15,154 nt of DNA, from assembly GCA_964647565.1 (NCBI GenBank), contig CAZYIM010000048.1, positions 1 through 15,154 of the forward strand. Reading direction: 5' to 3'. The translations under genes were made by a program, and so were the position numbers. Of this stretch, positions 2 through 4,028 are shown piece by piece. Numbering within the stretch: position 1 is the first letter of the stretch; every line of letters starts with the position of its first letter. This stretch comes from an uncultured Methanosarcinales archaeon. GTDB taxonomy: Archaea; Nanobdellota; Nanobdellia; Woesearchaeales; CAZYIM01. The notes beneath the pieces are model-generated. The model was given only the letters and a program-made list of their open reading frames with translations. It searched no databases and was not told where the DNA came from.

Positions 2-319
2 TATAGCGACACTGGCCGTGTTGAGCTTGTAGAGGATGATGAGATAACTCCTGAAGAAGAAGCCTTTATGCAGGGCTATGAACAAGAGACTGAGGAGAAG
101 CCCAAGACAGATGTAGATGAGATCTATGCTTCTGCTTTTGAAGGTGCATCATCCAAGAAGAAAAGGTCTGTTGCTTATAAGAAACCTGCTAAGAAGAAGC
201 CTAAGCCTAAACCAAAGAAAAAAGCTAAAACTAAGGCCAAGAAGAAGGCTGTCAAAAAGAAACCAGCTAAGAAGTCTAAACCTAAGAAAGCTGTAAAAAA
301 AGGAAAAAAGAAAAAATAA
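2..319 (+). CDS. Hypothetical protein, 5'-truncated by window edge; acidic segment followed by Lys/Ala/Pro-rich histone-H1-like tail
   Basis: Frame of the 68..319 ORF stays open to base 2 (YSDTGRVELVEDDEITPEEEAFMQGY...), so the ATG at 68 is probably internal; C-terminus is KKPAKKKPKPK...KKGKKKK. Confidence 0.75.
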   Translation, partial: YSDTGRVELVEDDEITPEEEAFMQGYEQETEEKPKTDVDEIYASAFEGASSKKKRSVAYKKPAKKKPKPKPKKKAKTKAKKKAVKKKPAKKSKPKKAVKKGKKKK

Positions 320-324
320 TAAAT

Positions 325-2250
325 TTATAACACATCAAGTTCAAGCTTTTTCTCAGAGATGTTCTTTTTCAGCGTATCTATGAACTCATCCAGCTTGACA
401 TCAAACTTGAGCTTTCCATCCAAGGTCCTGACTGCAATGGTCTGCTTCTGCTCTTCCTTCTCTCCAACATTAATGATTAGGGGGATCTTCTGCAATTGAG
501 CATCCCTGACCTTTCTTCCAACACTCTCTGTACGAAAGTCCATCTCTGCCCTGATTCCAGCTTCAACAAGTTTCTTATGAATCTCTGTACCATAGCCATT
601 GAACTTCTCTGAAACTGTAAGTACAACAGCTTGTACAGGCGCAAACCATAACGGGAACCTGCCTGCAAAGTGTTCGACAATTATGCCAATAAATCGCTCA
701 AGCGCACCATAAATGACCCTATGTATCATCACAGGTCTGTGCTTGGTGCCATCCTTGCCTTCGTATGTCATGTCGAATCTTTCAGGCAAACTCATATCCA
801 GCTGGATTGTGGCGCACTGCCATGTCCTGCCGATAGCATCTGTGACATGTACATCTATCTTTGGGCCGTAGAATGCGCCGTCTCCTGGATTGATCTTGTA
901 CGGTTTCTTGGACTTGTCAAGGGCTTCTTTGAGCTTGCTTGTGGTCAATTCCCAGTCTTTGTCAGATCCTATTGACTTCTCAGGCCTTGTAGACAACTCT
1001 AGATAGTATGACAGGTTAAAGACCTTGTAAAAGCGGTCAACCAGGTTCAACACACCCAAGACCTCATCAACTATCTGGTCTTCTGTCATGAAGATGTGCG
1101 CATCATCCTGATGGAAGCATCTTACCCTAAAAAGACCTGCTAGTGTACCTGAAAGTTCGTGTCTATGCACTAATCCTACTTCGCCAGCACGAATTGGAAG
1201 TTCCCTATAGGAATGTACTTTTTCATTGTAGATCAGCATTCCGCCAGGACAGTTCATGGGCTTGACTGCAAAATCCTGGTTGTCGATCTTGGTTGTATAC
1301 ATGTTTTCCCTGTAGTTCTCCCAATGGCCTGATTTTTCCCATAATACCCTGTTAAGGATTATAGGGGTTTTGAACTCAACATAGCCAGCCTTTTGGTGCT
1401 CCTCTCTCCAGAACTTCATAAGCTCATTCCAGATGACCATACCCTTGGGCAGGAAGAATGGACAGCCTGGTGCTTCGTCATGGAAGCTGTACAGCTCTAG
1501 TTGCTTGCCGATCTTCCTATGATCCCGTTTTTCAGCCTCTTCCAGCCGCTTAAGATAAGCGTTCAGTTGTTTCTTGTCTGGAAAACTGACGCCGTAAATA
1601 CGCTGTAAAGGCTTGCTTTTTGCATCCCCTCTCCAATAGGCCCCAGAGACTTTTGTCAGCTTAAAAGCCTTTATTTTAGCTGTGGAAACAATATGCGGTC
1701 CTCTGCACAGATCTATAAAGTCGCCATTCTTGTAAATGGATAGCTTTTGGCCTTCTTCAGCAAACTCTTCAATAAGCTCAATCTTGAATGGATTGTCCTT
1801 GAAGATCTTCAGTGCTTCTGCCTTGTTAAGTTCCTGCCTTACAAAGGGATGATCCTCCTCAGCAAACTTCTGCATCTGCTTCTCAATCCGCTCCAGATCA
1901 GACGGCTTCAACGGTTTGATATCTATATCATAATAGAAGCCGCCCTCTACTGTAGGTCCGATTGTCAGCTTTGCAGCAGGATAGAGCTTCAATATAGCCA
2001 TAGCCATCAGATGCGCTGAGCTGTGGTGGAAAACCTCCTGTCCCTCATGCGTATCATATGTAATGAACTCTACTTTAGCATTCTCTTCAATCGACCTGTT
2101 CATGTCAAACAGGCTGTTGTTGACCTTAGCAGCCAAAGCAGCATCTGCTAACCTTGGCCCAATACCCTTGACGATCTCCTCTGGCTTTACGCCTTTATCA
2201 TATTCCTTTTTGGAGCCGTCTGGAAACTCAATTGTTATTTTATTTGACAT
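325..2250 (-). CDS. thrS: Threonine--tRNA ligase, bacterial-type (TGS + N2 editing + class II core + anticodon-binding domain), 641 aa
   Basis: Motifs ITIEFPDGS (TGS), HSSAH and DLCRGPH (editing), KPMNCPG, FYGPKID, WQCATIQLD, IHRVIYG. True start is the ATG at 2250, preceded by the RBS GGTGA (2256-2260); the extension to 2394 in the ORF track is structured leader RNA. Confidence 0.97.
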   Translation of the reverse strand: MSNKITIEFPDGSKKEYDKGVKPEEIVKGIGPRLADAALAAKVNNSLFDMNRSIEENAKVEFITYDTHEGQEVFHHSSAHLMAMAILKLYPAAKLTIGPTVEGGFYYDIDIKPLKPSDLERIEKQMQKFAEEDHPFVRQELNKAEALKIFKDNPFKIELIEEFAEEGQKLSIYKNGDFIDLCRGPHIVSTAKIKAFKLTKVSGAYWRGDAKSKPLQRIYGVSFPDKKQLNAYLKRLEEAEKRDHRKIGKQLELYSFHDEAPGCPFFLPKGMVIWNELMKFWREEHQKAGYVEFKTPIILNRVLWEKSGHWENYRENMYTTKIDNQDFAVKPMNCPGGMLIYNEKVHSYRELPIRAGEVGLVHRHELSGTLAGLFRVRCFHQDDAHIFMTEDQIVDEVLGVLNLVDRFYKVFNLSYYLELSTRPEKSIGSDKDWELTTSKLKEALDKSKKPYKINPGDGAFYGPKIDVHVTDAIGRTWQCATIQLDMSLPERFDMTYEGKDGTKHRPVMIHRVIYGALERFIGIIVEHFAGRFPLWFAPVQAVVLTVSEKFNGYGTEIHKKLVEAGIRAEMDFRTESVGRKVRDAQLQKIPLIINVGEKEEQKQTIAVRTLDGKLKFDVKLDEFIDTLKKNISEKKLELDVL

Positions 2251-2304
2251 TATTATCACCTTTGTTGTGTTTGTATGCTTTGATTTTAAATAGTTTACCT
2301 TTAG

Positions 2305-2530
2305 AACCTGCCTTCCCTGGCGAAAGACGGCCAAACGCTTTGCGTTTGTCCTACGAGGCACCCCACAGGGGTTCCCCCGCCTCGTCTTTGCCAAGGCAGG
2401 TTAAAACCATCTTGCCTCGTTACCTTCGGCAATCATGCCAATCAGGGCACAGACGGTCTTGGCTTTCGACTTTTTGTTCCTTTTCCAGGCCGCTTGCCCC
2501 AGGTTAACAACGCCCATGACTTATGCCTGT
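2305..2530 (-). promoter_or_regulatory. GC-rich structured RNA upstream of thrS (multibranched fold with alternative pairings)
   Basis: Perfect 10-bp stem AACCUGCCUU (2402-2393)/AAGGCAGGUU (2314-2305); AAAGACG/CGUCUUU; ACGAGGC/GCCUCGU; CAAACGC-AAA-GCGUUUG (2348-2332); ACCCC-UGU-GGGGU (2372-2360). Visibly more GC-rich than other intergenic DNA here. Confidence 0.75.
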
Positions 2531-2549
2531 TGAGAGAACAATGAAAAGA

Positions 2550-2636
2550 TTATATAGTTGTAGTGGTGGTTGTAGAACTAGCTAAGAAAAAGTGCTTTGA
2601 TCCGACATTCGATTTGTTTTCGATATTGTTCTTCAT
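2550..2636 (-). CDS. Thr-rich leader peptide, 28 aa (MKNNIENKSNVGSKHFFLASSTTTTTTI), thrL-like
   Basis: ATG at 2636, RBS AGGTGG at 2648-2643, six tandem Thr codons ACA ACC ACC ACT ACA ACT (2573-2556), TAA at 2552-2550; co-oriented with and upstream of thrS. Confidence 0.85.
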   Translation of the reverse strand: MKNNIENKSNVGSKHFFLASSTTTTTTI

Positions 2637-2672
2637 TTATGTCCACCTATTCCGACTGATAAATAGTATATA

Positions 2673-2688
2673 CTTATAAATGTTTTTA
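2673..2688 (-). promoter_or_regulatory. BRE/TATA promoter for leader peptide-thrS transcript
   Basis: TAAAAACA-TTTATAAG on minus strand, about 25 nt before the leader RBS; similar CGAAACATTTATATA boxes precede the 5742 and 11085 minus-strand genes. Confidence 0.65.
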
Positions 2689-2780: not shown

Positions 2781-4028
2781 ATGAAAAAGAAGATAATCTT
2801 ATTGGTTGTAATAATGGCATTAATGGTAATGCCCGCATTTGTAACTGCCAATGCTTTTGAAAGCATTTTTGATGTTATTAATGATGGTGCGGAACTTCTT
2901 ATGGGCAAACAAAGATCTACTAAAGAATCATTAAAAGATCTTCCTCAGGATGAGTTATGGAAACCTGTCTTATTGACAATGGCGTTAGTCGGAGGTCTTG
3001 TATCTGCAGGTCTTGCAAATATCAAGCTCTTTGATAAGAAAAAAGGCGCCGTAACTACAATTGCAATAATAATGGCTATTGCCACTGTTAGTTCACCAAT
3101 AACAGGCGTAATCTGGTCTATGAATTGGATACTTATAGGCGGTATGTTGATTTGTGTACTAGTATTCTTAGTCTTGAGTGTAGTCAGATCTTCAAAAGCC
3201 TCATCTGAAAGGGCGAAAGTCGATCTGACAAAAATGAAGTCTGATCAAGCATCCGCTGAAAAAGACTTAAAATATGCTGAAAAAGACAGAGCAATTGCAG
3301 AGAGTGAACTTCGCAATGAAGAGAAAATGATTGATAATGAAACACAATCAATGAATTATGCAATGAATAGCATAGATATGTTAAGCAGTTTAGGAAAAGA
3401 CGAGCTTAGAGATCTAGAAGCGATCTTAGATATAGTCAAGCAGCTATCATATGTAAGCGATGAAAGGGATGCAGCAAAACTAAAAGAGAGCGCTTTGCGA
3501 GCATTATCTGCTGCGGCTTCCGCAATAACTCATAAAAGAGAATCTATCGCTAAACTTGAAAAAGAAATGAAAAATATTCAGGGATATGAACATGAAGGCC
3601 TTGGAATGGAAGTTGATTTGTCTAAAATAGAAACAAAGCTTATTGAGCTATATAAGCGAAATGTTGGTACTGCACCTGGCGCTGCAACTAATAAGATGAA
3701 AACCCTAAAAGCTTTTGCTCAAAGGACCTATGAATTCTTTAGGGAAAGAGATACTCTAATCAAAGAATTGGCTGCTGAGATAGATTCATTTGATAAAAGG
3801 GATCAACAAGCAAATCAGCATGTACAGAACATCATCTCAAGGTTGCACGAGAATAATTTCCCTTCAGCACTTACTGAAATAAATAATGCGATAACATTAA
3901 AGAAACAGACAGTGACCGCAACCCAAAGATTTAAGGCATTCTCTGACAGGATAGACGCATTAGCAGCTGAGCTTAACAAATTATTTAAAGCAACTGGAGC
4001 GGAAATAGAAGCAGTAGTTAATAAATAG
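2781..4028 (+). CDS. Membrane-anchored coiled-coil hypothetical protein (signal peptide, ~3 TM helices, long helical domain)
   Basis: RBS GAGGTG at 2770-2775; MKKKIILLVVIMALM signal-like start; hydrophobic segments, then ~280 aa of heptad-like E/K/A/L-rich sequence. Confidence 0.8.
   Translation: MKKKIILLVVIMALMVMPAFVTANAFESIFDVINDGAELLMGKQRSTKESLKDLPQDELWKPVLLTMALVGGLVSAGLANIKLFDKKKGAVTTIAIIMAIATVSSPITGVIWSMNWILIGGMLICVLVFLVLSVVRSSKASSERAKVDLTKMKSDQASAEKDLKYAEKDRAIAESELRNEEKMIDNETQSMNYAMNSIDMLSSLGKDELRDLEAILDIVKQLSYVSDERDAAKLKESALRALSAAASAITHKRESIAKLEKEMKNIQGYEHEGLGMEVDLSKIETKLIELYKRNVGTAPGAATNKMKTLKAFAQRTYEFFRERDTLIKELAAEIDSFDKRDQQANQHVQNIISRLHENNFPSALTEINNAITLKKQTVTATQRFKAFSDRIDALAAELNKLFKATGAEIEAVVNK

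Follow-up and report, generated by a model that had tools for sequence, protein, structure and literature searches.

Does the pyrimidine-rich stretch that lies directly behind the stop codon of a threonine-rich leader ORF act as a signal, and if so, of what kind? The question is raised by an archaeal DNA stretch of 15,154 nucleotides (referred to in full as the window), in which the gene for a bacterial-type threonyl-tRNA synthetase, thrS, is preceded on the minus strand by a short ORF that ends in a run of Thr codons. The first-pass annotation of this DNA had proposed that a ribosome stalled on the run would cover the tract and prevent transcription termination or cleavage, an occlusion-type mechanism in place of a hairpin terminator.

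A family of threonine-codon leaders

The leader ORF comprises 28 codons plus TAA (2550..2636, minus strand; ORF list) and encodes MKNNIENKSNVGSKHFFLASSTTTTTTI. It closes with the six Thr codons ACA ACC ACC ACT ACA ACT (2556..2573, minus strand), one ATA codon for Ile (2555-2553) and the TAA stop (2552-2550), and it is unique in the genome when ORFs of up to 60 codons are searched for at least five terminal Thr codons, one further codon and a stop. A Shine-Dalgarno (SD)-like AGGTGG is found 6 nt 5' of the leader ATG (2643..2648, minus strand) and may serve its translation, while the TATA-like box TTTATAAG (2673..2680, minus strand) marks a putative leader promoter, P1. The spacer between this box and the ATG measures 36 nt, SD included, and in 20 of 27 family members a TTTA[TA]A[TA][AG] box is located 22-25 nt 5' of the leader ATG. 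With transcript starts placed by the usual archaeal TATA-to-start distance, the short spacing implies that the leader transcripts of the relatives would start at or near the AUG, i.e. that they would be leaderless; given its 36-nt spacer and SD, the leader transcript of this genome is probably leadered. A contig from an independent DNA run spans 2200-2619 with zero differences to the window, and contigs of four DNA runs are identical to it, free of variants and joints; the succession of thrS, GC-rich part, tract and Thr run was thus not created by the assembly.

Relatives of this leader were sought at 147 thrS loci of the same archaeal order (30 initial loci plus 117 usable ones of 120 further fetched). 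Thr-run leader ORFs precede thrS at 13 of them, and all 13 share the same ending, which consists of four to eight Thr codons (sometimes interrupted), exactly one codon for Ala, Cys, Ile or Asn, and a stop. The bearers are distributed over 11 families of the order. When the 300 nt upstream of thrS at the 147 loci were searched for runs of at least four of any residue with a stop within two codons, Thr runs were obtained 12 times, Lys runs four times, a Gln run once and runs of other residues not at all; the run of this genome begins at -323, outside the 300-nt range, and adds one to the 12. The Thr excess is seen although an A+T-rich composition favors Lys. Within the family, the codons of the run are synonymously variable, and the N-terminal parts of the peptides as well as the spacers to the next gene are dissimilar, while the nucleotides right after the stop are alike. 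A named collection of 80 thrS loci, by title mostly bacterial with five archaeal, contained no Thr-run uORF (0/80), which led us to reject an origin of the leader in Bacteria together with thrS; the nearest archaeal thrS loci in this collection belong to Candidatus Woesearchaeota or Nanoarchaeota, and together with the archaea-specific aCPSF1/FttA gene described below they led us to regard the genome as that of a DPANN archaeon of the Woesearchaeota type. A bacterial-type thrS has acquired here a control element that is not seen in these 80 mostly bacterial loci.

The leader is also found outside the thrS context. A pattern search recovered it 5' of homoserine dehydrogenase (hom; Pfam PF00742, E 8e-63) in three more genomes (G139, G269 and G069), and in G069 the order is leader, 45 nt including an SD, hom, thrS. 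With so short a gap, the leader transcript must be the one from which hom is read in this genome. A Thr-codon leader before two different Thr-related genes is a signature of Thr-supply regulation. A scan of metagenome contigs returned at least 119 stretches, most of which are chance; among the matches listed are eleven new members (L305, L319, L322, L323, L332, L338, L340, L360 and L382 and, less surely, L281), L282 is a re-find of L176, and thrS lies downstream in L282, L305, L322, L323, L338 and L340. Genomes flagged as unpublished enter only the tallies of the thrS-place listing and of the loose-pattern scan described below.

The conserved core behind the leader stop

The tract begins where the first-pass annotation had placed it, directly after the leader TAA and behind the terminal Thr run: the stop at 2552-2550 is followed without a gap by the U/C-rich UCUUUUCAUUGUUCUCUC at 2549-2532, both together forming the feature 2532..2552 on the minus strand. 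Sixteen of the 18 nucleotides of TCTTTTCATTGTTCTCTC at 2549-2532 are pyrimidines (11 T and 5 C, next to 1 A and 1 G), and of all 18-nt segments of the genome, both strands counted, 0.40% reach at least 16 pyrimidines (21221/5350558). The tract contains a single U4 run (2547-2544), and runs of five or more U are absent. Family comparison defines within it the conserved core UCAUUGUU (2537..2544, minus strand), which includes an invariant CA at 2543-2542.

That the spacing be compared across genomes had been suggested along with the original proposal, and the comparison bears it out. At eight of the 13 loci that were found without the motif, UCAUUGUU lies 5-7 nt 3' of the stop, with TCATTGTT at 5 or 7 nt; the core of this genome, at +5, has the family spacing as well. 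CAT occurs within 8 nt of the stop in 12 of these 13 motif-independent loci and CAG in the thirteenth. The C and the A of the core are invariant in 26 of 26 aligned distinct members, with the flanking T, T and G nearly so, a count in which half of the rows were found via the motif, so that only the 13 loci are to be taken as unbiased. The tail of the core has diverged in this genome, reading CUCUC vs UCUUU in the relatives. More generally, the T content of the 30 nt after the family stops is 45%, compared to 33% behind ordinary ORFs, and TTTT follows 15 of the 27 family stops vs 30% of ordinary ones.

The specificity of the arrangement lies in the combination of its parts. TCATTGTT was found in none of the first 20-nt stretches behind 1843 long ORFs of this genome (0/1843). 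A strict pattern, in which four Thr codons, a single further codon and a stop are followed at a distance of 4-8 nt by the core, matched six of 301 genomes of the phylum, all of them at known leader sites of this order, as compared to none for the reversed control, and it had no match in the 83 genomes from other orders. A loose pattern that dispenses with the stop (four Thr codons, 3-24 nt, core; 401 genomes) was no commoner than its control, with matches in 15 genomes vs about 40 for the reversed version, and was discarded. We likewise rejected the view that the tract is a terminator or repeat of general use: of the 30 copies of the core plus CT in the genome, only this one has the leader context, and a 12-mer searched in five relatives occurs 1-3 times per genome, approximately as often as the reversed control, with only the thrS copies following a Thr ORF.

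Several other candidates for what the core might be were tried and dropped. The reverse complement of the core contains an ATG, and an antisense peptide could be read from the ORF at 2523..2585 on the plus strand; it was rejected because the Thr codons vary synonymously and because, by eye, L176 has a stop in the antisense frame after 4 codons. For a second small ORF that would begin with the UUG of the core, the lengths vary widely and a link to the next gene is missing, again by eye. The complement of the core falls into a tRNA-like gene in two relatives, from which aragorn yields no clean tRNA, and the match was treated as chance.

The tract is real, and no other piece of the recurring leader element is as well conserved. 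On these comparative grounds it is not due to chance and represents a selected element directly 3' of a Thr-codon leader, and it is probably a ribosome-sensed transcription stop signal.

Possible modes of action of the tract

How could such an element act? We consider the tract to be the effector of a threonine-sensing leader, with the ORF and its terminal Thr run, one codon and stop as the presumed sensor. With slightly less than even confidence, we favor a model in which transcripts are terminated or cleaved at the tract as a U-tract-type site, and in which the position of the ribosome on the last leader codons sets how far this site is used. The U4 run, the invariant CA and UUGUU-CU would together most likely constitute an archaeal U-tract-type stop or RNA cleavage site for aCPSF1/FttA. 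When charged tRNA-Thr is scarce, ribosomes would dwell on the last Thr, Ile and stop codons, where they would open local pairing (in the relatives, a hairpin whose loop contains the stop codon), cover the 5' part of the tract and leave no free room behind the polymerase, resulting in readthrough into thrS. When tRNA-Thr is plentiful, the ribosome would leave at the stop, the naked U-rich RNA would be bound, and the transcript would be ended or cut before thrS. The sequences show how the leader is built, that it is conserved, that it is linked to Thr genes and that the factor gene is present, while we infer that the leader is translated, that ribosomes stall on it, that transcripts end at the tract and which way the response goes.

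The genome encodes the factor that the first-pass annotation had nominated: the aCPSF1/FttA gene (TIGR03675) is located at G000:C44:10526-12409 and scores 856 bits against a cut-off of 580. aCPSF1 is reported to bind U4 tracts and to cooperate with them in termination (PMC8716108), and the Pyrococcus enzyme to cut preferentially at single-stranded CA (PMC3553952). According to PMC11616081, the nascent RNA must be free over 36 nt at an FttA terminator, the U-rich part lying at -30 to -36 and the cut at -22/-23; the optimum given there for Thermococcus FttA, a U at the cut and a U-rich stretch 9-14 nt upstream, is not matched by the leader CA. The tract does hold the U4 that characterizes archaeal U-tract/FttA-dependent terminators, namely one U4 (2547-2544) in 18 nt with 11 U. 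The putative factor site (U/C-rich, with U4 and CA) starts immediately after the TAA and is conserved.

A ribosome usually covers some 12-15 nt of RNA past the codon in its A site. If this is the last Thr codon, the ribosome is expected to reach approximately 2546-2543, corresponding to the first 3-6 nt, or at most the first third, of the tract; from the stop codon it would reach about 12 nt of the tract, a geometry derived from the usual footprint sizes; and ribosomes on earlier Thr codons would reach none of it. Such a short reach means that strict occlusion would work only from the last Thr, Ile or stop codon. The original idea of a tract covered by the stalled ribosome can be kept for these positions and for part of the tract, and has to be given up for the earlier Thr codons, from which the footprint falls short. 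Part of the effect would have to come from melting of the hairpin or from keeping the factor off the polymerase. Ribosomes stalled on the first Thr codons would leave the tract and its CA fully exposed, which predicts more, not less, termination under starvation.

Mutual exclusion of ribosome and FttA on the polymerase has been put forward as a hypothesis by the authors of PMC11616081 and PMC8116511. It is conceivable, if rather doubtful, that the leaders represent a natural regulatory use of this ribosome-FttA/aCPSF1 competition, with the CA and the U-rich core placed at the leading edge of a held ribosome and the charging of tRNA-Thr setting the extent of cutting or termination before thrS or hom. 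If true, archaeal ribosomes would here control attenuation through a cleavage factor of eukaryote-like type. Competition behind the polymerase is presented as an open hypothesis in these sources (PMC11616081, PMC8116511). At about 120 nt, the leaders form a small natural system for examining it, with a defined sensor (the Thr codons) and a nucleotide-conserved effector (UCAUUGUU plus its U-rich tail) that can be moved to a reporter in a tractable archaeon.

The strongest alternative is built on RNA structure. A hairpin of at least four pairs spans the stop in 21 of 27 family members (mean z -2.0 vs shuffles), and it is formed by the stretch from the last Thr codon through the extra codon and the stop to the fifth nucleotide behind it, with 4-6 bp and the stop codon in the loop. 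Its typical form is ACAGC-GUAA-GCUGU, with the variants ACUGC/GCAGU, CCUGC/GCAGG, GACC/GGUC and CAGCU/AGCUG, and the U-rich core lies 3' of the hairpin in these 21 members. In ten members the hairpin is lengthened by pairing of ACAA from the Thr run with UUGU of the core, a pairing present in 85.6% of cells; for the named structure as a whole, 76.4% of cells are paired, compared to 18.7-54.1% when the partner is slid by 1-3 columns. The extra codon specifies Ala or Cys in 24 of the 27 members, which agrees with a need for G-C pairs. These observations would suit a factor-independent attenuator consisting of a single hairpin, in which the last Thr codon or codons, the Ala/Cys codon and the stop pair with the post-stop GCUGU...UUGU. 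Hairpin and U-rich tail would in effect form an intrinsic terminator whose 5' arm consists of the regulatory codons, and a ribosome on any of the last five to six codons would block it; the number of Thr codons, four to eight, may also match the reach of a ribosome over the 5' arm.

We nevertheless regard such an attenuator as unlikely. Covariation within the hairpin is not above the shuffle control (58 of 500 and 152 of 500 shuffles do as well as the family), so the hairpin is backed by conservation and folding and not by compensatory change. In addition, hairpins are reportedly unnecessary for archaeal termination (PMC8716108), and a ribosome at the stop would cover the hairpin too, with the consequence that termination under plenty would need fast release or polymerase pausing. 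The window itself has no stop hairpin (0.0 kcal/mol) and has Ile as its extra codon, yet it retains the core: this genome has lost the stop hairpin of its relatives, and if the hairpin were the effector, the element here would be a degenerate remnant because its inner stem is gone. The earlier statement that no hairpin terminator exists between leader and thrS is accordingly true of the window, where a consensus scan for hairpin-plus-T-run terminators on both strands of 2100-2900 gave 0 hits vs 0.7 expected, and does not extend to a family in which 21 of 27 members carry a stop-spanning hairpin followed by the U-rich core.

The region between the tract and thrS bears on two further explanations. 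thrS occupies 325..2250 (minus strand, ATG at 2250; ORF list and domain search) and encodes the TGS, SAD, class II core and anticodon-binding domains; a likely SD, GGTGAT, is found at 2260-2255 (minus strand), and the TATA-like TATTTAAA (2285..2292, minus strand), 34 nt 5' of the thrS ATG, is a possible second promoter. The distance from leader stop to thrS is 299 nt here vs 45-148 nt in most relatives, with L338 at 314 nt, and about 230 nt of it (2520-2294) are GC-rich and strongly folded. This insert consists of a GC-rich structured stretch (2413..2520, minus strand; folding), to which short similarities exist in two relatives, and of one copy of a dispersed structured repeat, the 119-nt R1 (2294..2412, minus strand; covariance model). 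The R1 copy is an insertion that is unrelated to threonine and accounts for the long spacer here. With 299 nt, two stable structures and a TATA-like box and SD of its own for thrS, the coupling between leader and thrS may be weakened in this genome.

Among the relatives, a consensus AAAATATATAAA box stands 24-28 nt 5' of an SD-less thrS ATG in L305, L322, L323, L338 and L340, where it lies 35-45 nt beyond the core; because of this second promoter, readthrough need not be productive in these five. The arrangement fits equally well with a leader that is a separate short transcription unit and a tract that is its terminator, insulating the thrS promoter; the response to Thr would then arise by transcriptional interference, readthrough occluding the thrS promoter, and the TATTTAAA box and SD before thrS in the window could be viewed in the same way. 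We find this quite improbable. A box at leaderless spacing is missing in most SD-bearing members, G069 has no room for a second promoter in its 45 nt with SD, so that readthrough must express the downstream gene there, and the logic of interference requires termination to rise under starvation.

It could also be argued that the tract has no regulatory role in this genome, being either a relic whose link to thrS was broken by the structured insertion of about 230 nt or a companion to a Thr-tailed peptide with a function of its own. The lost hairpin, the Ile in place of Ala or Cys, the diverged 3' part of the core, the long spacer and the promoter-like box at thrS all point in this direction. 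Against it, an intact ORF with six Thr codons is still accompanied by an intact SD and TATA box, the core is kept at the family spacing of +5, and it is the Thr run and the post-stop nucleotides that are conserved in the family, whereas the N-termini of the peptides are not; we therefore hold a loss of function to be improbable, a shade more so than insulation of the thrS promoter.

Least of all do we expect an RNA pairing switch that acts on translation, for which the pairing tests provide a few favorable results that do not carry over to the family. As the first-pass annotation had noted, the tract can pair with the leader start: AGAACAAU in codons 2-4 (2625..2632, minus strand) is the exact 8-nt complement of AUUGUUCU within the tract, the 8-bp duplex of -9.8 kcal/mol is matched by 1% of 200 shuffles, and the helix is also drawn in the minimum free energy (MFE) fold of the whole region. 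The second partner named at the time, GGAACAA, is present at 2480-2474. However, start:tract pairing beats 95% of shuffles in only four of 27 members, and pairs of tract and own start (mean -5.67 kcal/mol) are no better than those with the starts of other members (-5.16 kcal/mol). As the pairing is not conserved in the family, it is probably incidental in this genome. UCAU is able to pair with AUGR in every member, yet the AUG:CAU register shows no covariation with the leader start (3755 of 20000 permutations do as well). Duplexes between the stop/tract and the downstream ribosome binding site (RBS) stay at shuffle level in 12 of 14 loci, the present one among them (z 0.29), and thus lend no support to RBS sequestration at the thrS loci; the two exceptions are both hom-linked (L251, z -1.92; L259, z -1.66), i.e. 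both tested hom-linked leaders pair with the hom RBS above shuffles.

Known leader systems and the inserted repeat

Control through leader peptides that are sensed by the ribosome is a textbook mechanism of Bacteria. In the literature covered by our search, we found no description of leader-peptide attenuation in Archaea, only bacterial work or general surveys of archaeal small ORFs. The closest bacterial parallel to a conserved site behind the stop is E. coli tnaC-tnaA, in which a stalled ribosome masks a Rho site adjoining the leader stop codon. The archaeal leaders resemble it in having a short ORF with a pyrimidine-rich, putative factor-binding stretch directly after the stop, and in that factor-dependent termination in an untranslated spacer is proposed to depend on where the ribosome stands near the stop. 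They differ in the sensor, which would be a run of cognate codons responding to tRNA charging where tnaC uses its nascent peptide and the free amino acid, and in the factor, which would be the nuclease aCPSF1/FttA where tnaC uses the helicase Rho; most archaeal relatives also carry the stop-spanning hairpin.

With thrL (Rfam RF00506) and pheM-pheST, the leaders share a short ORF, a Thr-codon run before Thr genes (thrS, hom) and, by analogy, a possible sensing of charged tRNA through the speed of the ribosome; the feature typical of RF00506, an ORF of Thr codons upstream of Thr genes, is present in the window with 28 codons and six consecutive Thr. Unlike thrL, the window holds neither the alternative 1:2, 2:3 and 3:4 helices nor a hairpin-plus-U terminator, as judged by MFE fold and scan, and the fold around the leader ORF offers no alternative helix set beyond the start:tract helix. 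Moreover, the regulatory codons close the ORF, with a single codon between them and the stop, the host is an archaeon, and the transcripts of the relatives look leaderless. At gathering score, Rfam found no family in the whole window; matches at E values up to 10 in 2150-2800 were at chance level only, Thr_leader RF00506 was not among them, and a tRNA scan of the window found none. Lacking both a model match and the alternative helices, the element is not a member of the Rfam Thr_leader family.

The E. coli pyrBI attenuator, whose coupling is set by UTP-sensitive polymerase pausing, is comparable in that the end of the leader ORF overlaps a single hairpin and that a ribosome close behind the polymerase prevents termination; here, codon supply would take the place of UTP-sensitive pausing, and the window is without the hairpin. 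The polycysteine leaderless sORFs of mycobacteria (the 'ribulon') are reported to carry a run of codons for a single residue at their end, before several genes of the metabolism of that amino acid, with ribosome pausing as the sensor and a stalled ribosome opening a structure that hides the downstream RBS (bioRxiv 10.1101/834739). The archaeal leaders are similar with respect to the terminal codon run, its recurrence before several genes for the same amino acid and the leaderless transcripts, predicted for the relatives although probably not for this genome; unlike the leaders described in that report, their RBS pairing is at shuffle level in 12 of 14 loci and the conserved part is the post-stop U-rich core. 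Finally, the tract shares with the archaeal U-tract terminators described in PMC8716108, PMC11616081 and PMC3553952 the U-rich single-stranded RNA, the U4 and the CA, and the factor gene is present in the genome. Those sources describe ordinary gene-end signals, whereas the tract keeps a constant place 5-7 nt behind the stop of a putative sensory ORF, has its nucleotides conserved and contains a single U4 here. What our analysis adds is the post-stop core as a conserved effector, the invariant CA, the hairpin with the stop in its loop, the two promoter architectures and a repeat insertion that explains the anatomy of the window.

A second thrS fragment of this genome, on contig C79, has a higher G+C content and is without a leader. 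The inserted repeat has no Rfam match, and its covariance model detects 15 copies in this genome and copies in 27 of 101 scored genomes (this one included), with up to 35 per genome. Four copies from this genome align as a three-way junction in which 23 of 41 pairs show compensatory change, and eight of the 12 best R1 copies here are intergenic, clear of predicted ORFs.

A structured repeat between the leader and thrS

The interval between the threonine leader and thrS, the threonyl-tRNA synthetase gene, harbors a GC-rich structured element of ~120 nt (2294-2412, minus strand), which is dispersed in the same genome, G000, at 15 copies (C3:23789-23905, C3:43205-43325, C27:9601-9707, C2:9556-9673, and others). 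The element has the consensus GCCUUGGC..AGA-hairpin-UAGGAC-hairpin-GGCCGUCU...GCCAAGGAAGGC and folds as a three-way junction; comparison of four copies revealed covariation in 23 of its 41 pairs. The repeat is present in 27 of the 101 genomes scored, G000 counted, reaching a maximum of 35 copies per genome; 8 of the 12 best copies of G000 are intergenic, and no matching Rfam family was found. A second GC-rich folded stretch (2413-2520, minus strand) lies immediately 3' of the U/C-rich tract that follows the leader stop, and has short similarities to loci of two relatives, G026 and G038. Given that this stretch includes GACCGUCU and GGCCUGGAAAAGG, which are similar to portions of the element at 2294-2412, it may represent a broken or permuted copy of the repeat.

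Leaders and promoters at related loci

The same threonine leader precedes the homoserine dehydrogenase gene, hom, in three relatives (L251 of G139, L252 of G269, and L259 of G069), and the L251 enzyme contains an ACT domain. When the stop and tract region was paired with the downstream ribosome-binding site, a test that included the hom-linked loci L251 and L259, pairing exceeded that of shuffled sequences at 2 of 14 loci, and these were L251 and L259 only, suggesting that the hom leaders may act on translation as well. In one subfamily of metagenome contigs (L305, L322, L323, L338, and L340), a consensus AAAATATATAAA box is located 24-28 nt upstream of a thrS ATG devoid of a Shine-Dalgarno sequence, an arrangement from which thrS would be expressed as a leaderless transcript from its own predicted promoter. 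This box is placed only 35-45 nt past the conserved core of the tract. G000 also carries a second, partial thrS (C79:3792-4730), which shares 53% identity across residues 4-318, is located where a contig of 4.7 kb ends, and has no threonine leader upstream. The G+C content of C79 is 0.44, compared to 0.37 for the contig of the window, and C79 may be foreign to this bin.

Sequences complementary to the leader region

An antisense ORF of 20 codons, MPVERTMKRLYSCSGGCRTS, overlaps the leader (2523-2585, plus strand), and the CAT in the core, read on the opposite strand, supplies its internal ATG. Its frame is not kept in relatives, and the product is rich in Cys, Ser, and Gly only because threonine codons are read backwards. 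L402 (G020:C40) and L399 (G316:C11) contain a 12-nt sequence, AAGAAACAAUGA, that is perfectly complementary to the core. By eye, it falls into the apparent intron of a tRNA-like gene that shows a GUA anticodon loop and, in the T-loop, a second insert. No clean tRNA was reported by Aragorn at this site, and we consider the complement probably a chance match, shared by descent between two congeners.

Other reading frames of the window

Divergent from the leader, a 415-aa ORF (2781-4028, plus strand) displays hydrophobic segments at its N terminus and an extended charged part, which is probably coiled-coil; no Pfam family was matched at E up to 0.001. Positions 2-319 (plus strand) encode the C-terminal end of a protein, in which an acidic stretch precedes a long tail rich in Lys, Pro, and Ala (KKKPKPKPKKKAKTKAKKK...) that recalls histone H1-like tails.
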